From NCBI GenBank assembly GCA_045538365.1, contig JAZSRG010000171.1, positions 1 to 44,524 of the forward strand: a stretch of DNA of 44,524 nt. Direction: 5' to 3'. This document shows, in pieces, positions 1 to 44,524 of this stretch (the first letter of the stretch is position 1; each line of letters starts with the position of its first letter). The notes under the pieces were generated by a model, which made no database searches, was not told the DNA's origin, and saw only the letters and a program-made list of their open reading frames with translations. The position numbers and the translations under genes are program-made. The DNA is from Clostridia bacterium. GTDB lineage: Bacteria; Bacillota; Clostridia; Christensenellales; RUG350.

Positions 1-132
1 GGTTAAATGAGGGTTCGGTAACCGATTAAATGAAGCGATAAAGCCCGAAACTTTCAGAAACAACAACGAATAAAGACGACCGGGCGATTTCCCGGAACAT
101 TAAACAAAATTTATTATGGATTCAGTATTTGA
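1..132. repeat. Left copy of exact 132-bp direct repeat (right copy 44262..44393); implies a 44261-bp unit
   Basis: Identical string ggttaaatgagggttcgg...ggattcagtatttga at both sites. Copies diverge at 133 vs 44394. The left edge is the window edge, so the repeat may be longer. Confidence 0.95.
80..95 (+). promoter_or_regulatory. Early-leader hairpin copy 1 (CCGGG-CGATTT-CCCGG), 20 nt upstream of ATG 116
   Basis: 5-bp GC stem with 6-nt loop, flanked by CGAC and AAC. Member of an 8-copy family. Confidence 0.7.
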
Positions 133-495: not shown

Positions 496-538
496 GTTTA
501 ACAGCCGGGGGCGACCACGGCACAAAGAGAGCGAAAAA

Positions 539-1992: not shown

Positions 1993-2016
1993 CCGGGGGC
2001 GGAATACCCCCGGTTT
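1993..2016 (+). terminator. Weak intrinsic terminator or attenuator hairpin
   Basis: CCGGGGG-cggaata-CCCCCGG followed by TTTaatccTTT, directly after the stop at 1984. Confidence 0.4.
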
Positions 2017-4085: not shown

Positions 4086-4235
4086 ATGGGGGGGGCAAAA
4101 TATTGTATTGATTGTTTCGCATTTTGCGAATGTTCAATTGTTGGAGTTTGCGCGGACGACATACCATGCGAACATTTCCACGAAATAGACGATAACAGCC
4201 CGGAACAGCCGGGAAATACTAACGATAAACAATAA
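4086..4235 (+). CDS. Small Cys-rich ORF (49 aa) starting ATG-G8
   Basis: Hand translation MGGAKYCIDCFAFCECSIVGVCADDIPCEHFHEIDDNSPEQPGNTNDKQ, with TAA at 4233-4235. Confidence 0.4.
   Translation: MGGAKYCIDCFAFCECSIVGVCADDIPCEHFHEIDDNSPEQPGNTNDKQ
4088..4095 (+). repeat. Poly-G tract G8
   Basis: atGGGGGGGGca, immediately after the start codon of ORF 4086..4235. Confidence 0.95.
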
Positions 4236-9330: not shown

Positions 9331-9367
9331 AAAAGCCGCTTAAAACGAAAATTCCGAGAAAATAACA
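9331..9367 (+). repeat. 37-nt conserved element, copy A (33/37 identical to 31646..31682)
   Basis: aaaagCcgcttaaaacgAaaattcCgAgaaaataaca vs aaaagTcgcttaaaacgCaaattcGgGgaaaataaca. Confidence 0.8.
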
Positions 9368-9382
9368 AAGGGTTAGTTGTTT
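9360..9382 (+). promoter_or_regulatory. Late-gene stem-loop 1: AAATAAC-[AAAGGGTTA]-GTTGTTT
   Basis: 7-bp stem (one G-U) presenting the invariant 9-nt loop. Ends 80 nt upstream of ATG 9463. Confidence 0.7.
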
Positions 9383-9462
9383 CAAGCGAAAGAGAGAAAA
9401 ACAAAACATGCTTATCGTTGGAATTGTTATTGCTTTTCTTTCAGCGTTAAAGAGGTTAAGAA

Positions 9463-10110
9463 ATGGAAGAAGTCAGAAAGAGGGCTAAACCCCGAATGTG
9501 CAAGCGCACTAAAGAGCAAATCGCATTTGACCGCGCATTTTGCGCCGACTTGTTTTTGCGCGGTTATCCGTACCGGGAAATTGCCAAACGATTGAATGAT
9601 GATTTGGCAAAACGCAAAATGGAATATCGTTTGACGGAATCAATGGTTTATTACGATATTCAACAACTGCTTATTGCATGGAAGCGCGACCAATTGGAAA
9701 GCATAGACCAATATGTTACGGCGGAATTGCAGAAGTTGGATAAAATGGAGGTTGAAGCGTGGAACGCGTGGGAACTATCCAAGCAAACGAAAACGAAAAA
9801 CAAGACAAAGAAAGCCGGAAACGGTTTAATGGGTCGTCAAATAATGACGGAAAAGGCAACCGAAACGGCATCCGGAAACCCGCGTTATCTTGATTTGCTG
9901 TTGAACATACAGCACCGACGCGCAAAGATGTTGGGATTTGATGCGCCAATAAAAATAGCGATTCCGGGCGTTAATGTAACCGTCAACAATGAGAACGAAA
10001 GGTTTAACGTTGAATCAATCCCGGACGATTTGTTATTTGCAGTAGCGGACAAATTGCAATCCGCCGAATATGCCAAGATTTTAGCCGAAAAAACGGGCGG
10101 TAATGCTTAA
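9463..10110 (+). CDS. terS: Terminase small subunit (putative)
   Basis: Sits immediately upstream of terL. N-terminal HTH-like region (GYPYREIAKRLNDD). Size is typical. Confidence 0.5.
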   Translation: MEEVRKRAKPRMCKRTKEQIAFDRAFCADLFLRGYPYREIAKRLNDDLAKRKMEYRLTESMVYYDIQQLLIAWKRDQLESIDQYVTAELQKLDKMEVEAWNAWELSKQTKTKNKTKKAGNGLMGRQIMTEKATETASGNPRYLDLLLNIQHRRAKMLGFDAPIKIAIPGVNVTVNNENERFNVESIPDDLLFAVADKLQSAEYAKILAEKTGGNA

Positions 10111-11799: not shown

Positions 11800-11818
11800 A
11801 CGGCAAAGGGTTAGCCGT
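11800..11818 (+). promoter_or_regulatory. Late-gene stem-loop 2: ACGGC-[AAAGGGTTA]-GCCGT
   Basis: 5-bp stem with the invariant loop. Ends 37 nt upstream of ATG 11856. Confidence 0.7.
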
Positions 11819-14876: not shown

Positions 14877-14899
14877 ATAATTCAAAGGGTTAGAATTAT
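14877..14899 (+). promoter_or_regulatory. Late-gene stem-loop 3: ATAATTC-[AAAGGGTTA]-GAATTAT
   Basis: 7-bp stem. The 3' arm includes the A and T of start codon 14898. Confidence 0.7.
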
Positions 14900-15856: not shown

Positions 15857-15875
15857 CGGGCAAAGGGTTAGCCCG
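15857..15875 (+). promoter_or_regulatory. Late-gene stem-loop 4: CGGGC-[AAAGGGTTA]-GCCCG
   Basis: 5-bp GC stem with the invariant loop. Ends 29 nt upstream of ATG 15905. Confidence 0.7.
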
Positions 15876-17033: not shown

Positions 17034-17063
17034 GGGACGGGGCTAATTGTCCCGTCCCTTTTT
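17034..17063 (+). terminator. Strong intrinsic terminator after the capsid gene
   Basis: GGGACGGGGC-taatt-GTCCCGTCCC followed by TTTTT. Confidence 0.8.
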
Positions 17064-27009: not shown

Positions 27010-28842
27010 ATGGGAACGTATGAAGATTTAAAAAAAGCCATTCAAGCCGTTATAAAAACTAACGGAAATAATGAAATTACGGGCGAATTACTGCAACAAA
27101 CACTTTTGGCAATCGTTAATACTATTGGGAAAAATGCAACCTATGCAGGGGTTGCAACCCCAACGACCAATCCGGGTTCGCCAGACCAAAATGTTATATA
27201 TTTGGCAGTTGCCCCCGGAAATTATGCGAACTTCAATGCTATCGCATTATCGCCCGGAGAAATTGCAATCATTTCTAATAACAACGGTTTTTGGGAAAAA
27301 CACACGCTTTCCCCAATTAATTATACGCCGATTACCTATGCTGAATTGGTAAATTTAAGAAATGGCGGTGGGTTGTTTCCGGGGTATTATTACCGAATAA
27401 CAGATTACGAAACTACAACCACACAAGCAAACACGCGTGCGGCGGGACATTTATTTGATATTGTCGTTTTGGCATTGTCACCAAATGAACTTTCGGAACG
27501 CGCATGGGCTGTACATTCTGAAAGGGATGTTGACGGGTACTTTTCAAATTCAAATCTTTCAGCGTGGGAAATATGGTACGCGTTGAATAACGATTCGGAA
27601 CGTTTCGCATGGGCTGATGTGAATAACGGAAAGGGCGTTATTTATCGCATGGTTGACGAATGGAATAACGATTGTCCGTATGACTTTAAGAACATTATAA
27701 TCGTTAACAATTATAGTTTTCAATATTTTCAATGGGGGCAAACTTATCAATTTATTCGAAATGAAAGCATTGATATTGTTATTGACAATATACAATATTA
27801 TGGCTATACTTCTAACAAGGTACCGAGTGCATGGAACAATGGTAATTGTTGGCTTATAGATGAAATCCCGTCTATTGATAGCGTACTATATAAAAATGAT
27901 GGTTCTGTTATTTCTTATGGCGGGACAATTCGAAAGGTAAATTCTGTGTATAGTGCAAACTATACTTTTGAAGGTGCTAATGATTTAGTCGGAAGGAGTA
28001 CGCAAAATACCATTCGACCGTATATAATAAACGACAAAAGACATATTAACAACATAACTTTTCGCGATATTTGCCATGGCAACACTTTCGGTGATAATTG
28101 CAGTAGTAACGTTTTAGGTCAAAACTGCAGTAATAACACATTCGGCAATGGTTGCAGTAATAACACATTCGGCAATGGTTGCGATAGTAACACATTCGGC
28201 AATAATTGCAGTGGTAACACATTCGACGATGAATGTAGTAGTAACACTTTCGGTGATAATTGCAGCAATAACACTTTCGGTATTTATTGCAGCAATAACA
28301 CTTTCGGCGATGAATGTAGTAGTAACACTTTCGGTGATAATTGCAGCAATAACACTTTCGGCGACCGTTGCAATAGTAACACTTTCGGTATTTATTGCAG
28401 CAATAACACTTTCGGCGATGAATGTAGTAGTAACACTTTCGGCGACCGTTGCAATAGTAACACTTTCGGCAATGAATGTAGAAGTAACACATTCGGCAAT
28501 GGTTGCGGCAATAACACTTTCGGTATTTATTGCAGCAATAACACTTTCGGCGATGAATGTAGTAGTAACACTTTCGGCAATGATTGCTATGATAATGCAA
28601 TGCTTGCATACGCACGATATAACACATTCGGCAATGGCGTACAACGCATGAATCTTATATCAGCAGCACCCGGTAGCGCGTTAAATTTCGCGCAAAATTA
28701 TCGCATTACTAATGGCTTACAGGCAGGATCGGGAGGTTCAGCGCAAATCATACAAGTTGAACGAAACAGAAATTACGAAACAACCATTGGTAGAAATAGT
28801 GCCGGGAATATTAAACAATTTTGCGTTGCTGATATGTTTTAA
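27010..28842 (+). CDS. Tail fiber / receptor-binding protein candidate with NTFGxxCxx nonapeptide repeat array
   Basis: Last large gene of the tail module. About 21 tandem 9-aa repeats lie in the C-terminal third. Confidence 0.65.
   Translation: MGTYEDLKKAIQAVIKTNGNNEITGELLQQTLLAIVNTIGKNATYAGVATPTTNPGSPDQNVIYLAVAPGNYANFNAIALSPGEIAIISNNNGFWEKHTLSPINYTPITYAELVNLRNGGGLFPGYYYRITDYETTTTQANTRAAGHLFDIVVLALSPNELSERAWAVHSERDVDGYFSNSNLSAWEIWYALNNDSERFAWADVNNGKGVIYRMVDEWNNDCPYDFKNIIIVNNYSFQYFQWGQTYQFIRNESIDIVIDNIQYYGYTSNKVPSAWNNGNCWLIDEIPSIDSVLYKNDGSVISYGGTIRKVNSVYSANYTFEGANDLVGRSTQNTIRPYIINDKRHINNITFRDICHGNTFGDNCSSNVLGQNCSNNTFGNGCSNNTFGNGCDSNTFGNNCSGNTFDDECSSNTFGDNCSNNTFGIYCSNNTFGDECSSNTFGDNCSNNTFGDRCNSNTFGIYCSNNTFGDECSSNTFGDRCNSNTFGNECRSNTFGNGCGNNTFGIYCSNNTFGDECSSNTFGNDCYDNAMLAYARYNTFGNGVQRMNLISAAPGSALNFAQNYRITNGLQAGSGGSAQIIQVERNRNYETTIGRNSAGNIKQFCVADMF
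28081..28647 (+). repeat. In-frame tandem repeat array, 21 x 27 nt (NTFG-x-x-C-x-x)
   Basis: aacac(t/a)ttcgg recurs every 27 nt. Exact 65-nt blocks occur at 28270-28334, 28378-28442 and 28513-28577. Confidence 0.95.
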
Positions 28843-31682: not shown

Positions 31683-31730
31683 TGAAAAATCAAAATTTTA
31701 TGCAATTTCTTTGAAAATTAAAATAAAACT

Positions 31731-31761
31731 TTTGGAAATTAAAAATAATTGATTACCTTTG
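31731..31761 (+). promoter_or_regulatory. Early promoter P1 (Bacteroidota sigma-A type)
   Basis: TTTG (31731-34), 19-nt spacer, TACCTTTG (31754-61). Part of a repeated cassette of about 45 bp. Confidence 0.75.
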
Positions 31762-31786
31762 CACCATACAAATAAAACAACAGCGA

Positions 31787-31802
31787 CCCGGCGCATTCCG
31801 GG
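31787..31802 (+). promoter_or_regulatory. Early-leader hairpin copy 2 (CCCGG-CGCATT-CCGGG), 18 nt upstream of ATG 31821
   Basis: The stem is swapped relative to copy 1, so pairing is preserved. Confidence 0.7.
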
Positions 31803-31820
31803 AAAGTAACAGAAAGCAAA

Positions 31821-32066
31821 ATGACAACATCAATTTACAACGGTTTGGAGTACACAACAACAGAGATTAACCGCAACTATAAAATTAAGGTTTACGGATA
31901 TGTTGACGGAATCAAGATTAACAAGTTGGTAGGCGTTCGCGGTCTTATACAGTTAATCGGCGTTGAAATGGCTAACAAGATGTTGCGCCGCGCTTTCCGT
32001 TGCATGGACGATGTGCAGGTTTGCAAACTTCGTCGCGGTATTAAGATTTCGTTTTATTCATGCTAA
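31821..32066 (+). CDS. Hypothetical early protein (81 aa)
   Basis: ATG ORF downstream of P1 and the hairpin. Confidence 0.65.
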   Translation: MTTSIYNGLEYTTTEINRNYKIKVYGYVDGIKINKLVGVRGLIQLIGVEMANKMLRRAFRCMDDVQVCKLRRGIKISFYSC

Positions 32067-32075
32067 TTCATTCGA

Positions 32076-32091
32076 CCGGGCGATTTCCCGG
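32076..32091 (+). promoter_or_regulatory. Early-leader hairpin copy 3 (CCGGG-CGATTT-CCCGG), 20 nt upstream of ATG 32112
   Basis: Intercistronic, with no promoter in between. Confidence 0.7.
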
Positions 32092-32111
32092 AAACTTAAT
32101 ATTATATCATT

Positions 32112-32348
32112 ATGGCAACAAAAATTTCACACGTTGGCGAAGTATTTAGTTATTACATGGCGGGAATTAATTTTATCTATATTCCGCAAACTATTGAACC
32201 GGAGGGGGAGAAATTCGCGTCGGAATCTTATGAGGGGCGCAAAATTATGATTTATTCCGACGGGCAATCATCTAACGTATATTGGTGCGCTGATAAAGCC
32301 GCATTTGATTCTTTCGTTGAAAGTGGAAAATATATTAAAATACGATAG
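32112..32348 (+). CDS. Hypothetical early protein (78 aa)
   Basis: ATG ORF. Confidence 0.65.
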   Translation: MATKISHVGEVFSYYMAGINFIYIPQTIEPEGEKFASESYEGRKIMIYSDGQSSNVYWCADKAAFDSFVESGKYIKIR

Positions 32349-32349
32349 T

Positions 32350-32787
32350 ATGGCAACATTTCATACAAACGCGGATTATTACAAAGCCGCCCCGAACTTT
32401 GAGCCAACACAGCCCAACCCCACGGAAAAGGTTGGGCGGGCTACGAAAAAAGCGGATTGCGTCGTTAGGGCTTTTTCTATCGTAACCGGATATTCATGGT
32501 TGGAATCGTTCGACATTTTGGCGGAACATGCCCGCCGGACTTACAACATGGTTAACGACCCATTGAATTATTACGAAGTACTCCGGGAACGTGGATATAA
32601 AGAATACACAGAAAAAGCGGTTAAGGGTAAAAAGCGTTTGACCGTTGAGCAATTCGCGCAACAGCACCCAACCGGGCGTTATCTTGTTAAAGTGGCGCAC
32701 CATTTAACCGCCGTTGTTGACGGGGTAATAAAAGACGTATGGAACACGTCTAACGAAGTTGTTTATAAATATTTTGAAGTTGTTTGA
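32350..32787 (+). CDS. Hypothetical protein with papain-fold-like Cys...His pattern (145 aa)
   Basis: KKADCVVRAFSIVTG ... VAHHLTAVVDGVIKDVWN resembles C39/papain-like peptidases (weak). ATG 32350 follows the upstream stop. Confidence 0.6.
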   Translation: MATFHTNADYYKAAPNFEPTQPNPTEKVGRATKKADCVVRAFSIVTGYSWLESFDILAEHARRTYNMVNDPLNYYEVLRERGYKEYTEKAVKGKKRLTVEQFAQQHPTGRYLVKVAHHLTAVVDGVIKDVWNTSNEVVYKYFEVV

Positions 32788-32788
32788 T

Positions 32789-33052
32789 ATGGCAAAAGTT
32801 ATTCAAAGTGAAAAAGGTTTTAAACTAATTGAAGTAAGTTGGTTGGAAATTGTGGAATTGGGCGGATTAGGTATTTGCGATTCATGCGGAAAAACAGCGG
32901 GAACCGGGGTTTATATTGCCGTCTTAAATTCATGGTATTGTAAAGAATGTTTTGAAAAATGGCACAAAAGGGCAAAACATTACGCACAAGATTCAAGAAT
33001 TGAGGAATCTAATTTTAATGTGTATAAATCATTATTACGTCCTAAAAGATAA
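32789..33052 (+). CDS. Small zinc-binding-like protein (87 aa)
   Basis: CDSCGK ... CKECFEKWH gives two CxxC pairs. ATG 32789 lies 1 nt after the upstream stop. Confidence 0.6.
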   Translation: MAKVIQSEKGFKLIEVSWLEIVELGGLGICDSCGKTAGTGVYIAVLNSWYCKECFEKWHKRAKHYAQDSRIEESNFNVYKSLLRPKR

Positions 33053-33339
33053 TGGCAAAACAGAAAACGCGGGAAAGTCAGTATAACGACATCTTGCAAC
33101 GTTGGCACGATACCAATATTTTGAAATGTGATGTTTTGGGGTTTGTCTTTCCGGGAAACTATATTATCAAATTCCATTACGCGACATTATCCGAACATTT
33201 ACGCGGGTATATTTACGACACAATCGGCGACCGGGTTATTATGGTAATGCCTAAAAATAGCCCAATGATACCGCGAATTAAGAAAATAGCCGAAATATAC
33301 GGCGGTATAGAATACACTCCGAATTTAAAAACGGTATGA
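33052..33339 (+). CDS. Hypothetical protein (95 aa)
   Basis: TAATG coupling. Confidence 0.6.
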   Translation: MAKQKTRESQYNDILQRWHDTNILKCDVLGFVFPGNYIIKFHYATLSEHLRGYIYDTIGDRVIMVMPKNSPMIPRIKKIAEIYGGIEYTPNLKTV

Positions 33340-33340
33340 T

Positions 33341-33694
33341 ATGGAAACTAACAGCATGACAAAGAAAAAATTGATTGAATCGGTTATTGATTCGATAAAG
33401 AGGTTGCAGAAGTACGACACGCAATTTTATCAACTTGAACCCGAAACGTATTACAAGGCATTGAACCGCCGGGCGTTGACAGAATTAGACGCGGAATTAA
33501 AACGCCGTTTGAAAATGGCGGCATGGGTTGAGGGATTAGGCGGGCGAATTATTCCGCGTGCTATGGCAATTGAAATGCAATTGAAAAAGGTTGTTAAATC
33601 CGGCGAACTCTGTGAATACGTGGGTTTGGGATTTGCCAAAATAAAAGATGCAAGCGAAAGGGATGTAAGGACATATTATAACATCATTTCATAA
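33341..33694 (+). CDS. Hypothetical protein (117 aa)
   Basis: ATG 1 nt after the upstream stop. Confidence 0.6.
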   Translation: METNSMTKKKLIESVIDSIKRLQKYDTQFYQLEPETYYKALNRRALTELDAELKRRLKMAAWVEGLGGRIIPRAMAIEMQLKKVVKSGELCEYVGLGFAKIKDASERDVRTYYNIIS

Positions 33695-34173
33695 TGAATC
33701 CGTTAATTGAGGAAATACAAGGGTGGGCGAAATTATGCACCGGGAAACAACGGGAATTTTACCGGGATATGTTGGAAGTCGCAAAGCCCGTTGAAGTCGT
33801 CCGCGCTGTTGACGTGTTGACCCCGGAACAAATGGATTATCTTTTGCGTGTTGTAAACCCCCGCCCGAAACATTGTTATCGAAATGCGTATTTATTGGCG
33901 CAAGGATTCCCGGACGAAATACAATATTGCGAATGTAAAGTTGCAATACCTTTCGGCATAGACCACGCAATTAACAAGGTCGGCGACAAATACATTGATA
34001 TAACATTTGAATTTGCGTTGGAAGATTGCCCCCCGGAATGTTACGATTACGTTGTTATTGGGGAATGGGAGGTTGACGAAGTGCGCCGCATGGTTCGCAA
34101 AACCGGGATGTATGGCGACATGTACGCCCGGACATATTGGGAAAGCCATAAAAAGACCCCCGCCGTTCAGTAA
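33694..34173 (+). CDS. Hypothetical protein with Cys/His/Asp pattern (159 aa)
   Basis: PKHCYRNAYLLAQ ... GIDHAINKVGDKYIDITFE could be a cysteine hydrolase fold (weak). Confidence 0.6.
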   Translation: MNPLIEEIQGWAKLCTGKQREFYRDMLEVAKPVEVVRAVDVLTPEQMDYLLRVVNPRPKHCYRNAYLLAQGFPDEIQYCECKVAIPFGIDHAINKVGDKYIDITFEFALEDCPPECYDYVVIGEWEVDEVRRMVRKTGMYGDMYARTYWESHKKTPAVQ

Positions 34174-34185
34174 GGACGACGGGGG
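34157..34185 (+). terminator. Hairpin overlapping the stop codon; weak terminator
   Basis: CCCCCGCCGT-9 nt-ACGACGGGGG (one mismatch). The T tract is poor. Confidence 0.35.
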
Positions 34186-34293
34186 AACGCTTTATGTATA
34201 AGAGCGAAAACGTAAAGCGATGCGCAAAAATAGGTATTTTTAACCGGGAAAATCAAAAATTTAGATAAAATCGCATAAAATTAAATTAAAACC

Positions 34294-34324
34294 TTTGGAA
34301 ATTAAAAATAAATATCTACCTTTG
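34294..34324 (+). promoter_or_regulatory. Early promoter P2
   Basis: TTTG (34294-97), 19-nt spacer, TACCTTTG (34317-24). Same cassette as P1 (cctttggaaattaaaaata). Confidence 0.75.
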
Positions 34325-34350
34325 CATCGTTGGAATGAGCCAACGACCGA

Positions 34351-34367
34351 CCGGGCGGGATTCCCGG
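34351..34367 (+). promoter_or_regulatory. Early-leader hairpin copy 4 (CCGGG-CGGGATT-CCCGG), 19 nt upstream of ATG 34387
   Basis: 7-nt loop variant. Confidence 0.7.
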
Positions 34368-34386
34368 AACTTACCGTTTTTTTGTT

Positions 34387-34596
34387 ATGGGTGCAAATAT
34401 TTCAAATATCAATGTTAAAGAATATCGCTTAATGTATCTTTTTGGCGCGTGGGTAACTAAAGAAGTTATTATTGCGGAAACAGACAACGAAGCAATTTTT
34501 GACGCTGACGAAGCATTTGCAAACAGCAATTTGGCAAATTGGAAATATGGCGTTGCGCTGTTTTGCGGAAATCGCAAAGTCAAGCAATACAGATAA
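34387..34596 (+). CDS. Hypothetical early protein (69 aa)
   Basis: ATG ORF downstream of P2 and the hairpin. Confidence 0.6.
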   Translation: MGANISNINVKEYRLMYLFGAWVTKEVIIAETDNEAIFDADEAFANSNLANWKYGVALFCGNRKVKQYR

Positions 34597-34603
34597 TTGG
34601 AAT

Positions 34604-34675
34604 TGGGATTTGGTGTAATGGTTAGCACATTAGATTTTGGTTCTGACAATCCGGGTTCGATTCCCGGAATCCCAA
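34604..34675 (+). tRNA. trnQ: tRNA-Gln (anticodon UUG)
   Basis: Hand-folded cloverleaf: acceptor TGGGATT/AATCCCA, D arm GTGT-AATGGTTA-GCAC, anticodon arm TTAGA-TTTTGGT-TCTGA, variable loop CAAT, T arm CCGGG-TTCGATT-CCCGG, discriminator A. CCA is not encoded. Confidence 0.85.
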
Positions 34676-34684
34676 CTAAACCGA

Positions 34685-34700
34685 CCCGGCGATTTCCGGG
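34685..34700 (+). promoter_or_regulatory. Early-leader hairpin copy 5 (CCCGG-CGATTT-CCGGG), 16 nt upstream of ATG 34717
   Basis: Lies 10 nt after the tRNA 3' end. Confidence 0.7.
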
Positions 34701-34716
34701 CAAAAATCAAAGTATT

Positions 34717-35151
34717 ATGAAATTCAAACTTACTGCATCATTAGACAATTTGGCGAACAAAGCGGGTTTGTCAATCGCTGAATTTTCGGACACCGTTATT
34801 TCTCAACTTATCAAGGCGGAAGCAATAGAGGACATCCCGGATTTGTGGGGACTTACCATTAAAGAAGCGGTTGACGGTGGAACGAATGTAAAAACATTAT
34901 CTGACATTCTGTATAATACCGGAATCCCAATTGTCACAAATCGTCATTTTGATGCGCTGTTGGAACTGGTAATTGTCGGCGAACACGATTGCCCGAAATG
35001 TGGCGGCGAAATGGAAGTTATAGACGGGAAATATAGACGAACTTTCGGCGACGGATATATGACACCATACGAACTTGAACCGGAATGGGAGGACAAAAGA
35101 TGTACTAATTGCGGACATGTTGAGATAGGCACGCGATACGACGAAGAATAA
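34717..35151 (+). CDS. Hypothetical protein with C-terminal zinc ribbon (144 aa)
   Basis: CPKCGGEM ... CTNCGH. The track ORF (34597) runs through the tRNA. ATG 34717 follows the conserved hairpin. Confidence 0.65.
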   Translation: MKFKLTASLDNLANKAGLSIAEFSDTVISQLIKAEAIEDIPDLWGLTIKEAVDGGTNVKTLSDILYNTGIPIVTNRHFDALLELVIVGEHDCPKCGGEMEVIDGKYRRTFGDGYMTPYELEPEWEDKRCTNCGHVEIGTRYDEE

Positions 35152-35561: not shown

Positions 35562-36833
35562 ATGAGAGCGAAAGAAATAGAAAACGACGCATTGGCGGCA
35601 CTTATGGCAACAGAGCCGGAAAACCGCGCGTTTGAGATTGTCCCCGGAATGACGGTTGAGGAAATGCAATGTATGTTTTTCGACAAAACGGCATTGATTG
35701 AACCCCCGTACAAAGTATTTCAGTTAAACAGCAAGGGACACCGTTATTATTACCGATTCGACGAAAACGGACAACCCGAATTTTTCCCGTCCGTAACAAC
35801 CATTTTGTCGCAGACACTCCCAAAATCGCCATTCCTTATTGAATGGATTGCGTCAAAGGGCATGGACGAAGCGGAACGATACAAGGCGGAACGCGCGGCA
35901 TACGGAACGTTTATGCACGCCCAATTTGAGGAACTTATCATTAACCGCGTGTATAATCTTGATGACCTCAAAGAGAAGTTGAAAACATATATTGAGGTTA
36001 ACAGATTGCCGGACAACTTCATTTATTACGCGGACGACTTGAAAAAGGACGTTTTAGCGTTCGCACAATTCGTCAAAGATTATGACGTGCGCCCGTTGGC
36101 TGTCGAAATTGCGTTGGTACATCCATATTACAAGTATGCCGGAATGATTGATTTGCCGTGTACGATGTTACGCAAGCTGGGCGGAACGGAAAGGATTAAC
36201 GCCATAGTTGATTTTAAGAGTGGGCGCAAAGGTTTTTATGAGGAAGCCGAAATACAATTACATCTTTACAAAATGATGTGGAATGTGACGTTTGAGGAAC
36301 ATCCGATAACAAACGTTTTCAATTTCAGCCCGAAAGATTGGCGCAAAAAACCGTCTTACAACCTCAAAGACCAAACAGACAGCCCGAACGCCGCAAAGAT
36401 TCCGGCATTGTTGGAGATTGCCGCCATTGAGGACGACAAGCGCGACAACATATTTACAGCCGTTTCCGGTTCAATCAGTTTGGACGAACCGCAAGATTTT
36501 ACGGACAACGTTATATCGTTGACATTGGCGGAACTTATCAAGACAAAAGCCCCGGTTGAGGAAACCCCGGACGAAACCACGGACGCAACCGTTGAAGTCA
36601 AGGCGGCAAAGCCGGAAAAAGCCGTTAAAAAGGAAACAAAGACAACAAAGGTTGTCAAGCGTACAGCCAAAAAGACGGACACCGCGAAAAAGGGCGAAAA
36701 CAAGCCCGTCAAGGCTTCCAAATCTTCAAAAGGTACAACCGCACCAAAAAAGGAAGAAAAGCCCGTAAACGCGAAAAAAGAAAAAATTAACGCACAAAAG
36801 AAGTCGTTATTGGCAGACGACCCGGAAATATAG
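35562..36833 (+). CDS. PD-(D/E)XK (RecB/lambda-Exo-like) nuclease with Lys-rich C-terminal tail
   Basis: GTFMHAQFEE, GMIDLPC, IVDFKSGRK (DxK), EIQLHLYK (QxxxY). The last 90 aa or so are K/T/A-rich and histone H1-like. Confidence 0.65.
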   Translation: MRAKEIENDALAALMATEPENRAFEIVPGMTVEEMQCMFFDKTALIEPPYKVFQLNSKGHRYYYRFDENGQPEFFPSVTTILSQTLPKSPFLIEWIASKGMDEAERYKAERAAYGTFMHAQFEELIINRVYNLDDLKEKLKTYIEVNRLPDNFIYYADDLKKDVLAFAQFVKDYDVRPLAVEIALVHPYYKYAGMIDLPCTMLRKLGGTERINAIVDFKSGRKGFYEEAEIQLHLYKMMWNVTFEEHPITNVFNFSPKDWRKKPSYNLKDQTDSPNAAKIPALLEIAAIEDDKRDNIFTAVSGSISLDEPQDFTDNVISLTLAELIKTKAPVEETPDETTDATVEVKAAKPEKAVKKETKTTKVVKRTAKKTDTAKKGENKPVKASKSSKGTTAPKKEEKPVNAKKEKINAQKKSLLADDPEI

Positions 36834-39637: not shown

Positions 39638-39991
39638 ATGAGAGCGAAAGAAATTAGTTTGGCAACCCCGTTTTATATGGTAAGCCGAGAACAAATTGTT
39701 ATTATTTATCCTACAAGTGTAAGTTATAATCTTAACAGCGAAATTCGCGTTATGTTGGGTGGTCAATATTGGGATGTTATTAAGCAGAATTTTAATAATG
39801 GTTATTTGGGTTGTGAAGATAGGCGTTTTTATTGGGATTTGGAGAAAGCGCAACAATACCAATATCAATTGCGTAAAGAAAGAGCCGAAAAGGTTAAACG
39901 TGAATTGGACGGGAAATATAGAGAGCATGAGGACGCACAACGCCTTTTATATTCTCCATTAAGCAAACCCACAGAACGCCCGATTGAATGA
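39638..39991 (+). CDS. Hypothetical protein (117 aa)
   Basis: ATG ORF. Shares its first 17 nt (MRAKEI) with gene 35562. Confidence 0.6.
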   Translation: MRAKEISLATPFYMVSREQIVIIYPTSVSYNLNSEIRVMLGGQYWDVIKQNFNNGYLGCEDRRFYWDLEKAQQYQYQLRKERAEKVKRELDGKYREHEDAQRLLYSPLSKPTERPIE

Positions 39992-43277: not shown

Positions 43278-43283
43278 TAATTC

Positions 43284-43316
43284 ATTCCCGGCGTATAATG
43301 CACCGGGAATTTTTTG
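43284..43316 (+). terminator. Intrinsic terminator
   Basis: ATTCCCGG-11 nt-CCGGGAAT followed by TTTTTT. Confidence 0.75.
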
Positions 43317-43346
43317 CAAAAAAATGTGAAAAATTAAAGTAAAAGT

Positions 43347-43377
43347 TTTGGTATTTCAAAAAATAATGCTACCTTTG
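43347..43377 (+). promoter_or_regulatory. Early promoter P3
   Basis: TTTG (43347-50), 19-nt spacer, TACCTTTG (43370-77). Confidence 0.7.
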
Positions 43378-43403
43378 CATTGTTGAATTAAGACAACGAC
43401 CGA

Positions 43404-43419
43404 CGGGGCGGATTCCTCG
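43404..43419 (+). promoter_or_regulatory. Early-leader hairpin copy 6 (CGGGG-CGGATT-CCTCG, includes a G-U pair), 20 nt upstream of ATG 43440
   Basis: Pairs only if a G-U wobble is allowed, which argues for RNA-level structure. Confidence 0.6.
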
Positions 43420-43439
43420 AACCGATAAAGAGAAACAAA

Positions 43440-43670
43440 ATGAACGCAACATTAACAGCAGTAAAAAAGAATCTTGAAACCGTATTGTCAAAGGTAGCCG
43501 GAATCGAAGTTGAAATAACATTTGCACGTATTAACATGGTTACTATCTGTTGGGACGGCGAAAACGAAACAGCGTTTGAGAAATTGCAAAAATACTTCGA
43601 CGGTAAATTATACGGATATGAATATGACGCAGAATGTGAATTGTCCGTTTGCTGTCTGAACTACAAGTAA
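43440..43670 (+). CDS. Hypothetical early protein (76 aa)
   Basis: ATG ORF downstream of P3 and the hairpin. Confidence 0.65.
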   Translation: MNATLTAVKKNLETVLSKVAGIEVEITFARINMVTICWDGENETAFEKLQKYFDGKLYGYEYDAECELSVCCLNYK

Positions 43671-43676
43671 AACACC

Positions 43677-43692
43677 GGGGGCGCAAGCCCCC
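43677..43692 (+). promoter_or_regulatory. Stable GC hairpin with GCAA tetraloop and no T tract
   Basis: GGGGGC-GCAA-GCCCCC, 7 nt after the stop codon. Possibly an mRNA-stabilising or processing element. Confidence 0.45.
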
Positions 43693-43707
43693 AACCAAAT
43701 ACAGCGA

Positions 43708-43723
43708 CCCGGCGCGTTCCGGG
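43708..43723 (+). promoter_or_regulatory. Early-leader hairpin copy 7 (CCCGG-CGCGTT-CCGGG), 18 nt upstream of ATG 43742
   Basis: The flank acagcgaCCCGG is identical to copy 2. Confidence 0.7.
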
Positions 43724-43741
43724 AAATTAAAATAACAAGCC

Positions 43742-44059
43742 ATGAAAGCAAACGAAATCAATTGGAACGAAAGGGACATGTTAATTTTTAACGCCAACCC
43801 CGCAAGAGGACATTATAAATTTATGATGCGTTTGGGACGCTGTTTGCCAACCACAAAGGCGCAAGCAAAATATTTCATTTCCGAGGGCATACATATTGAC
43901 GTACTTAACAATATAGATGTTGCGATTGTCGAAAAGATATTGAATGAAGCGGGATTTGTCGGAAACTATCAATTTACCAAAAGTAAACGTTGGGTTCGTC
44001 TTATCAATCAAAGCGACTTACACCGTGCATTTGCAAAGAAATTTGGACTTAAATACTAA
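43742..44059 (+). CDS. Hypothetical early protein (105 aa)
   Basis: ATG ORF. Confidence 0.65.
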   Translation: MKANEINWNERDMLIFNANPARGHYKFMMRLGRCLPTTKAQAKYFISEGIHIDVLNNIDVAIVEKILNEAGFVGNYQFTKSKRWVRLINQSDLHRAFAKKFGLKY

Positions 44060-44066
44060 CATACAG

Positions 44067-44092
44067 AACCGGGGCAAAACCCCGGTTTTTTC
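44067..44092 (+). terminator. Intrinsic terminator
   Basis: AACCGGGG-caaaa-CCCCGGTT followed by TTTTCTTTTC. Confidence 0.8.
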
Positions 44093-44129
44093 TTTTCTGT
44101 AAAAATTTTGCAAAATTTATATTAAAACT

Positions 44130-44160
44130 TTTGGAAATTAAAAATATATCCTTACCTTTG
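44130..44160 (+). promoter_or_regulatory. Early promoter P4 (drives gene 116 across the unit junction)
   Basis: TTTG (44130-33), 19-nt spacer, TACCTTTG (44153-60). The cassette is nearly identical to P1 and P2. Confidence 0.75.
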
Positions 44161-44171
44161 TAACGTTGTTA

Positions 44172-44267
44172 ATGAAAGACCCCACGACCAAGCCAATACA
44201 CAAACGAGGTCGTTATAAGGCAAAAGCCGTAAGAGTTGTAAGAAGCACGGGAACAACAAAGGGTTAA
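44172..44267 (+). CDS. Possible 31-aa highly basic leader ORF
   Basis: Hand translation MKDPTTKPIHKRGRYKAKAVRVVRSTGTTKG. Its stop codon lies inside the CAAAGGGTTAA motif. May be non-coding. Confidence 0.2.
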   Translation: MKDPTTKPIHKRGRYKAKAVRVVRSTGTTKG

Positions 44268-44393
44268 ATGAGGGTTCGGTAACCGATTAAATGAAGCGAT
44301 AAAGCCCGAAACTTTCAGAAACAACAACGAATAAAGACGACCGGGCGATTTCCCGGAACATTAAACAAAATTTATTATGGATTCAGTATTTGA
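44262..44393. repeat. Right copy of the exact 132-bp direct repeat
   Basis: Identical to 1..132 (offset 44261). Confidence 0.95.
44341..44356 (+). promoter_or_regulatory. Early-leader hairpin copy 8 (duplicate of copy 1 within the terminal repeat)
   Basis: Same sequence as 80..95. Confidence 0.7.
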
Positions 44394-44524
44394 GTTAGAT
44401 TTCCCCGTTCCTCACCCGTCGCGGCTAACGCCGCGCCACCCTCCCCCCGGGGGAGGATATTTTGCACATTCACCTCTTGTCTGGCATATCCTGATAAGAG
44501 GTGATTTTTATGCCCATTGTGGAT
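44394..44524. other. 131 nt of unrelated, GC-richer, hairpin-dense sequence after the repeat (host flank, variant path or chimeric end)
   Basis: Hairpins CGCGGC-TAAC-GCCGCG (44420-35), CCTCCC-cccgg-GGGAGG (44440-56), and CACCTCTT-17 nt-AAGAGGTG followed by ATTTTTA (44471-44509). The ATG at 44377 stays open to the window end. Confidence 0.5.

Follow-up and report, generated by a model that had tools for sequence, protein, structure and literature searches.

We analysed a 44,524-nucleotide stretch of phage DNA (contig JAZSRG010000171.1, hereafter the window), and found that it carries seven distinct copies of a small GC hairpin with a 5-bp stem, all on the coding strand and each ending 16-20 nt ahead of an ATG. 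The hairpin is very likely a cis-acting RNA structure of the 5' leader, which probably aids translation of the genes behind it, or the survival of their messages, in bacteria whose initiation does without Shine-Dalgarno (SD) pairing. The window is the ~44.3-kb genome of a PDS1-like Bacteroidota siphophage whose long open reading frames (ORFs) are all on the + strand. Bases 1-132 are identical to 44262-44393, so the window consists of one ~44.3-kb genome, the overlap and a 131-nt tail; the end repeat marks a circular or terminally redundant assembly. The terminase and most of the other proteins show 55-85% identity to those of Parabacteroides phages PDS1 and PD491P1, Bacteroides phages BKO1-3 and C1_85S2P, Alistipes phage AS73P1 and Elizabethkingia phage TCUEAP2, and Bacteroides phage B40-8 shares ~54% identity with the window proteins.

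A preliminary description of this DNA had listed eight hairpins. Sequence inspection, pattern matching and a covariance model all placed a hairpin of the kind described at each of the eight positions, and the last copy (44341-44356), recognised there as a duplicate of the first, falls in the 132-nt overlap with the window start, leaving seven distinct copies and not eight (Table 1). The pattern CSSGGCGNNNNYCSSG gave 7 matches on the + strand of the window against 0.33 expected. The covariance model (R1), built on 40 distinct copies (alignment A1) and run with filters off, returned exactly the 8 sites, all on the + strand, at 29.6-41.7 bits (E <= 2e-6), the next-best match in the window scoring 13 bits (E 0.13). 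The consensus proposed earlier is better written as NCGA-[C-S-S-G-G]-CG-(N)N-N-U-U-[C-C-S-S-G]-N-A. Conservation in the loop falls on positions 1, 2, 5 and 6. The stem has 5 bp (6 bp in one variant), and the flanks add no conserved pairing to it. Searches with the model also bore out positional conservation in relatives, whose absence would have counted against the earlier reading, with 4-8 copies in each of six complete genomes, all on the coding strand, and the motif recurs in many gut viral contigs. Its sequence is near-identical in phages of Bacteroidales and Flavobacteriales hosts. No copy was present in B40-8, where the same kind of promoter leads straight into an A-rich leader.

Stem pairs were counted in an alignment of 126 model hits, of which 91 were distinct, from 67 sources. 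Three pairs varied among the distinct copies (CG63/GC25/UA2, GC74/CG7/GU7 and GC84/AU5/GU1), and the remaining two were essentially invariant. We also collected 80 viral contigs with, as query, the protein encoded by gene 1 (the first gene led by a hairpin; 31821-32066 in the window) and not the motif itself. Most of these had the hairpin at the orthologous gene-1 site, with compensatory stem changes (CTGGG/CCCAG, CGGAG/CCTCG, CCGGA/TCCGG and CCAGG/CCTGG) and with stem mismatches in only a few singleton contigs. G-U variants were seen in 8 distinct rows, including the window and the complete genome of the isolated phage TCUEAP2 (two copies), whereas A-C variants, which a hairpin on the opposite strand could tolerate, were limited to 3 singleton metagenome rows. 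The flanks and the loop are asymmetric and always co-oriented with the genes. The compensatory and G-U changes, together with this asymmetry, place the structure on the sense strand, that is, in the transcript, and the earlier proposal that pairing is conserved and not a DNA half-site is thereby upheld. The comparative support for this leader motif is unusually clean.

These data bear directly on a DNA-level function, in which a dimeric DNA-binding protein would recognise the element as a palindromic operator, or the element would act in replication as a hairpin of single-stranded DNA. Half of the copies do place an inverted repeat between a promoter and a gene, and a Cro/C1-type helix-turn-helix protein is encoded in the operon behind promoter P2. 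However, the arms covary and tolerate G-T, which keeps pairing and not a half-site, the orientation of flanks and loop never departs from that of the genes, half of the copies have no promoter nearby, and position follows the ATG and not the promoter. This explanation fits poorly and seems to us barely credible. An N4-type DNA hairpin promoter was rejected: a G-T pair on the sense strand is an A-C mismatch on the template, and copies lie downstream of canonical host promoters.

The position of the hairpin was examined in 106 distinct contexts. The spacer to the ATG measured 18-21 nt in 85 of them (range 10-23), and re-measurement in the window returned the same values as before (Table 1). The window spacers contain no ATG and, on inspection, are A-rich without an SD-like run, as had been described; predicted folds leave the spacer unpaired in five of the seven copies, and copies 4 and 6 pair part of it. 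Across contexts the spacer sequences are unrelated. The second base after the stem is A in 99 of the 106, positions +1 to +10 are mostly A, and a position table of the same contexts showed no conserved position beyond +4, hence no pause or ops-like signal.

The window has four near-identical Bacteroidota-type promoters (TTTGGAAATTAAAAATA..TACCTTTG), P1 to P4, and two hairpin copies stand in each operon behind P1, P2 and P3. The preliminary description had placed copies after all four promoters; the distance is about 25 nt for P1-P3, and the copy assigned to P4 is 180 nt downstream of it. A -7 promoter element precedes 54 of the 106 contexts, with the stem beginning 19 or 24-26 nt past it. Transcription from promoters of this type is expected to start 4-5 nt past the -7 element (PMC6847099), so that promoter-proximal copies would have 14-21 unpaired nt at the 5' end. 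The other 52 contexts have no promoter; for 31 of them the distance from the end of the stop codon of the upstream ORF to the stem is 5-13 nt (mode 7). With the contexts divided in this way and the 18-21-nt spacer retained in most, the earlier view that the element is tied to start codons and not to promoters stands. Furthermore, copies occur only at intergenic gaps. Other genes in the same operons overlap stop and start and are translationally coupled, and the hairpin therefore marks cistrons that need independent initiation. The ORFs opened by the hairpin-led ATGs encode 64-144 aa each. We infer their early-gene status only from the host-type promoters, and in relatives some copies precede replication-module genes.

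Public gene calls of these phages begin upstream and read through the hairpin (L001 1886-2203, which is PDS1 gp5, P0060, P0109 and others, with, for example, ...TTGRFPG... in the product), and in P0070 read-through has fused gene 1 to a WYL_2 protein. Judged from the alignment and the motif, the true start of such genes would be the ATG ~20 nt past the stem. Gene callers that translate through the hairpin have mis-set start codons in public records of these phages.

Translation initiation in Bacteroidota works without SD pairing. Our preferred explanation, which we put forward tentatively and at somewhat less than even confidence, is that the hairpin works in cis as a 5' boundary element for the ribosome landing zone and affects the cistron downstream of it by positioning the 30S subunit and shielding the message from decay. 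Here a 5-bp GC hairpin with a conserved hexaloop in the mRNA, possibly closed by pairing of the NCG flank with the CGN' of the loop, would border the 5' side of the unstructured A-rich landing zone of each early cistron initiated de novo. From -17 to -22 it would fence or position the 30S subunit, either as a backstop or by docking bS1 or the platform, insulate the landing zone from upstream sequence and block 5'-end-dependent decay of the message. While the structure, strand, copy number, conservation and geometry of the hairpin were observed, its effects on initiation and stability are what we infer. In Flavobacterium johnsoniae a zone of low structure extends from -20 to +20 around start codons (PMC6847099), and its -20 limit is where the hairpin ends on the 3' side.

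To locate the motif in hosts, the consensus, with its flank, was scanned against one genome for each of 185,579 species. The 25 matches were phage-sized contigs within metagenome-assembled genomes (MAGs) and scattered single hits. No named Bacteroides or Parabacteroides chromosome was among them, and the two matches labelled Bacteroidota were both MAG contigs, one of 46.6 kb. A motif kept across phages of Bacteroidales and Flavobacteriales, with host hits of only this kind, fits a partner as conserved as the ribosome.

The gene for an ATPase is also informative. It is preceded by the canonical hairpin in PD491P1 and TCUEAP2, by a 6-7-bp GC stem with a GNRA loop in PDS1, BKO1-3 and AS73P1, and by an irregular GC hairpin in the window (504-521), and all of these end 16-21 nt before the ATG. 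At this gene, position and a stable stem are kept even where the loop differs. Hairpins with unrelated loops at the same distance suggest that structure matters more than loop sequence. At the site equivalent to the degenerate window variant at 4199-4213, relatives have a version of the motif with a 6-bp stem. GC hairpins with GNRA tetraloops (GCAA, GAAA) and no U-tract were also observed at gene ends (43677-43692 in the window, before 10879 in L001, and before 23418 and 31403 in L006), where they directly precede the canonical hairpin, or replace it 16-17 nt ahead of the ATPase start.

Several observations weigh against a landing-zone boundary. The spacing is not specific to the motif, since a hairpin of terminator type, followed by a U-tract (17039-17057), likewise stands 18 nt ahead of ATG 17076 and the GNRA hairpins share the ATPase-gene distance; it may simply be the closest approach allowed by the unstructured -20 to +20 region, plus genome compaction. 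The conserved CG..UU loop, the NCGA flank and three near-invariant pairs exceed what a passive fence needs, which suggests a sequence-specific partner. B40-8 has the same promoter type and no hairpin, and distant gene-1 contigs carry a different, AU-rich stem-loop exactly at the predicted +1, so early expression in Bacteroidota does not require the element. Finally, the unpaired 5' nucleotides of promoter-proximal copies are unlike a classical 5'-terminal stabiliser.

The excess conservation would be accounted for if the hairpin were a translational operator, at which a phage or host RNA-binding protein sits at the 5' edge of the 30S footprint and jointly represses (or activates) the early cistrons. 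Loop, flank, the A at +2 and the three near-invariant pairs are conserved well past the needs of stability, the copies of each genome are concentrated in the first cistrons behind host-type promoters, and the absence of the motif from host chromosomes and B40-8 is as expected for a partner that travels with the phage clade. T4 RegA offers a likeness in the scope of such a regulon. In the T4/RB69 gene 43 operator the hairpin is 16-18 nt long and adjoins the ribosome-binding region on its 5' side, and both its structure and its loop sequence are conserved among related phages (PMC3014915). The leader hairpin has a similar geometry (16-17 nt, ending 16-21 nt before the ATG, loop conserved). However, the gene 43 operator is single-copy and autoregulatory with a known binder, gp43 (PMC3014915), whereas the leader hairpin occurs 4-8 times per genome, before unrelated small genes and without an SD sequence.

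A search for a protein partner gave little support to such an operator. Among ~40 window proteins and 10 from relatives, Pfam and PHROG detected no RNA-binding, NusG/KOW or N-like domain, which for an N-type protein is a weak negative. The gene-1 protein is the sole small early protein common to the hairpin genomes, but its AlphaFold model (predicted local distance difference test score, pLDDT, 84) had no fold match in the PDB (best E 0.2), and gene 1 was also found in contigs without the hairpin. Presence/absence profiling against B40-8 yielded ~10 candidates, none of them informative. The sole lead was a WYL_2 Sm-like protein, encoded by the first hairpin-led gene of TCUEAP2 and absent from the window. 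Strict sequence recognition is also difficult to reconcile with the unrelated loops found ahead of the ATPase gene. We consider an operator improbable on present evidence.

Alternatively, the early polycistronic RNA may be cut near the hairpins, or the hairpins may stop 5'-to-3' decay or RNase E-type scanning, or cap the 3' end of the upstream fragment. Copies follow promoters, separate cistrons and, in one case (copy 5), come directly behind a tRNA that on maturation leaves a 5' end 4 nt before the flank, the promoter-less stems that begin 5-13 nt past a stop codon occupy the position of an intercistronic 3' stabiliser, and GNRA-loop GC hairpins replace the motif at one orthologous site. In addition, the stem-loop at the predicted +1 of gene-1 mRNA in hairpin-less relatives has the geometry of a classical 5' stabiliser. 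On the other hand, promoter-proximal copies have no upstream cistron to protect and leave their 5' end unpaired, and conservation of loop and flank would be unexplained unless a specific nuclease read them; none was found. In T7 early RNA, the RNase III sites are long irregular duplexes, which also flank the first gene. The likeness lies in repeated structured elements after early promoters and between early cistrons, with one ahead of the first gene, but a site of that type is an extended duplex (~20 bp or more), and a 5-bp stem should not be an RNase III substrate. We hold processing or stabilisation to be unlikely, though the placement after stop codons and a tRNA speaks for it. Public strand-specific RNA-seq of P. 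distasonis with PDS1 exists (PMC12118408).

The leader position could also suggest a co-transcriptional signal, in which the nascent hairpin pauses RNA polymerase or loads an antitermination factor, as with lambda nut/boxB, LoaP-type leader hairpins or the ops pause hairpins in capsule operons of Bacteroides. Like the hairpins of lambda nut and of Bacteroides ops (PMC11685472), it is a small 5-bp leader hairpin downstream of early promoters; copies lie just past strong promoters and upstream of terminator-like hairpins, and in class-2 Bacteroides ops the pause hairpin ends at -14 with the start codon at +9, a similar overall distance (PMC11685472). Other features speak against it. Two copies occur within 300 nt in one operon and others have no promoter, and the sequence 9-14 nt downstream of the stem has no conserved pause or ops-like element, the 3' side being A-rich and not U-rich. 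The loop is a CG..UU hexaloop (6-7 nt, CG(N)NUU) and not a GNRA-like pentaloop of the boxB kind. A boxA-like element (CGCUCUUUA-like, searched as CGCTCTTWA with 1 mismatch) gave 20 matches in the window against 17.9 expected, none near a copy; the flank that is conserved reads NCGA. Neither a NusG/KOW nor an N-like protein was found among those scanned. An intrinsic terminator is not indicated either, with A-rich sequence 3' of the stem and no + strand copy in the terminator scan. Pausing or antitermination thus fits poorly, and we regard it as very unlikely.

The landing-zone boundary would take a more specific form if the hairpin folded into a pseudoknot. The NCG of the 5' flank and the CGN' that opens the loop are complementary; paired, they would form a minimal H-type pseudoknot whose loop 1 is a single base and whose second helix has 3 bp. 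In the 91 distinct copies, flank position -4 and loop position 3 form AU50/CG31/GC2/UA1, with 7 unpaired, beside invariant C-G and G-C pairs. CCG:CGG pairing is kept across the linkers A, G, C, T, AT and AC between flank and stem, changes of C to U in the flank retain a wobble with the loop, and the pairing is possible in five of the seven window copies. This covariation is only suggestive. The two big classes (ACGA..CGUUUU and CCGA..CGGGUU) may go back to a single event and travel as cassettes, only 3 of the 8 distinct cases with CGA or CGC at the loop start pair with the flank, a fourth flank:loop pair was tested and not supported, and quasi-palindrome correction at the DNA level could mimic the pattern.

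Such a fold could serve as a ribosome-recruiting, start-positioning substitute for the SD sequence, docking bS1 or the 30S platform with the P site ~20 nt downstream and prioritising early messages of this phage clade over host mRNAs in a range of Bacteroidota, a proposal that we find doubtful. At the tisB standby site, S1/30S is bound where a 5' structure or pseudoknot adjoins a single-stranded tract (PMC6690012, PMC7708055), which is a precedent for the landing-zone boundary as well, and tisB and the T4 gene 32 pseudoknot both have a compact 5' structure followed by an unstructured A/U-rich tract to the start (PMC6690012, PMC7708055, PMC3014915). The leader spacers provide an adjacent unstructured A/U-rich tract up to the start codon, and if NCG does pair with CGN', a one-nt loop 1 and coaxial helices could result. 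However, the tisB structure acts ~100 nt from a sequestered ribosome-binding site (PMC6690012, PMC7708055), and the gene 32 pseudoknot lies ~67 nt upstream and nucleates gp32 (PMC3014915), whereas the start codon behind the leader hairpin is 16-21 nt away and not sequestered, and the second helix is 3 bp with one covarying pair. Flank and loop, compared by eye with the 3' region of 16S rRNA, showed no complementarity beyond 5 nt.

Among described elements, the C(UUCG)G hairpins of T4-type phages, as summarised in PMC8948821 (Tuerk et al. 1988), are also multi-copy and mainly intergenic, with a fixed loop and variable complementary stems; relative to that summary, the leader hairpin differs in its CG(N)NUU loop, its fixed position relative to start codons and the conservation of both flanks. 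Rfam 15 gave only tRNA-Gln at gathering score in the window, Rfam E-value scans of 31700-34760 and 43280-44524 had no match on any hairpin copy, and literature searches did not recover a description of the motif. It is a new phage leader motif without a name, which we place among the known leader hairpins as a variant and not in a category of its own. Mimicry of a CRISPR repeat (RNA anti-CRISPR) was set aside, with no arrays in the genome scan and the coupling to ATG unexplained, although this exclusion is weak as the scan pattern contained the flank. The T-arm of tRNA-Gln(UUG) (34651-34667, CCGGG TTCGATT CCCGG) has the same stem as the hairpin, and AS73P1 encodes a tRNA-Gln too. Mimicry of a tRNA T-arm was rejected, the leader loops being mostly 6 nt long and devoid of the UUC..A T-loop signature.

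Across host orders, this phage clade keeps one small structure at the point where, on the 5' side, the initiation zone begins, and does so for every early gene that is initiated independently. The hairpin is a compact, natural and mutable handle on start-site choice in Bacteroidota, as reporters allow its stem, loop, flank and spacer to be altered separately. Should it enhance or position initiation, or stabilise messages, it would supply a portable 5' untranslated region part for engineering gut Bacteroides.

Table 1. Leader hairpins, promoters and related hairpins (CM, covariance-model score; distances to ATG are from the last stem base).
Feature	Coordinates	Strand	Description
Hairpin copy 1	76..97 (stem-loop 80-95)	+	ACGA, CCGGG/CCCGG, loop CGATTT, then AA; 20 nt to ATG 116; CM 41.7 bits
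Hairpin copy 2	31783..31804 (stem-loop 31787-31802)	+	GCGA, CCCGG/CCGGG, loop CGCATT; 18 nt to ATG 31821; CM 35.6 bits; 25 nt past -7 element of P1
Hairpin copy 3	32072..32093 (stem-loop 32076-32091)	+	TCGA, CCGGG/CCCGG, loop CGATTT; 20 nt to ATG 32112; CM 34.5 bits; intercistronic, stop codon of ORF 31821-32066 ends 9 nt ahead of stem
Hairpin copy 4	34347..34369 (stem-loop 34351-34367)	+	CCGA, CCGGG/CCCGG, 7-nt loop CGGGATT; 19 nt to ATG 34387; CM 29.6 bits; 26 nt past -7 element of P2
Hairpin copy 5	34681..34702 (stem-loop 34685-34700)	+	CCGA, CCCGG/CCGGG, loop CGATTT; 16 nt to ATG 34717; CM 37 bits; flank begins 4 nt past tRNA-Gln (34604-34676)
Hairpin copy 6	43400..43421 (stem-loop 43404-43419)	+	CCGA, CGGGG/CCTCG, one G-U, loop CGGATT; 20 nt to ATG 43440; CM 33.6 bits; 26 nt past -7 element of P3
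Hairpin copy 7	43704..43725 (stem-loop 43708-43723)	+	GCGA, CCCGG/CCGGG, loop CGCGTT; 18 nt to ATG 43742; CM 35.8 bits; intercistronic, preceded by GC hairpin with GCAA loop (43677-43692)
Hairpin copy 8 (duplicate of copy 1)	44337..44358 (stem-loop 44341-44356)	+	in terminal overlap 44262-44393 = 1-132; 180 nt downstream of P4
Promoter P1	31731..31761	+	Bacteroidota type, TTTG..TACCTTTG
Promoter P2	34294..34324	+	near-identical to P1
Promoter P3	43347..43377	+	
Promoter P4	44130..44160	+	~180-nt leader, then hairpin copy 1/8
Degenerate variant	504..521	+	GCCG/CGGC stem, 10-nt loop; 17 nt to ATG 539 (ATPase gene)
Variant	1993..2013	+	7-bp stem CCGGGGG/CCCCCGG, loop CGGAATA; 16 nt to ATG 2030
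Degenerate variant	4199..4213	+	CCCGG-AACAG-CCGGG; 28 nt to ATG 4242
Second-class hairpins	9362-9380, 11800-11818, 14879-14897, 15857-15875; loop only 44258-44266	+	
Second-class hairpins in relatives	L005 37412, 38391; L006 6173, 42503		

The second class of hairpin shows an invariant loop of 9 nt, AAAGGGTTA, with 5 exact + strand matches in the window. Its 5-bp stems are all different (ATAAC/GTTGT, ACGGC/GCCGT, AATTC/GAATT and CGGGC/GCCCG; in relatives CGGGT/ACCCG and ATTTC/GAAAT), and it stands upstream of structural genes and a sigma-like gene, 0-85 nt from the ATG. It looks like a late-gene counterpart of the early hairpin. The AAAGGGTTA motif is also present within the ~180-nt P4 leader (44165-44340), which folds somewhat better than its shuffles (z = -1.98) and could be a small RNA or a regulatory leader.

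SD elements are rare in Bacteroidota. An SD-like AAAGAGGT was observed at 9441-9462, ~9-14 nt before ORF 9463-10110 (an RNA polymerase sigma factor in the PDS1 annotation), and is conserved in relatives as aaaagaggttgaac-ATG. Another sequence, AGAGCGA(A/T)A, recurs at 528-534, 35565-35571 and 39641-39647 of the window and in leaders of PDS1, AS73P1 and TCUEAP2. In the gene-1 and ATPase-gene leaders it stands close ahead of the ATG, and otherwise it makes up the first codons (ATGAGAGCGAAA); it might be a second initiation-region signal.

The unrelated, GC-rich tail of 131 nt (44394-44524) has a palindrome of its own, CCTCCCCCCGGGGGAGG, and is possibly an assembly chimera or junction. Elsewhere, about a dozen tandem 27-nt repeats (28242-28574) lie in the large ORF 27010-28842, with a periodic AAAGTGTTA on the minus strand.

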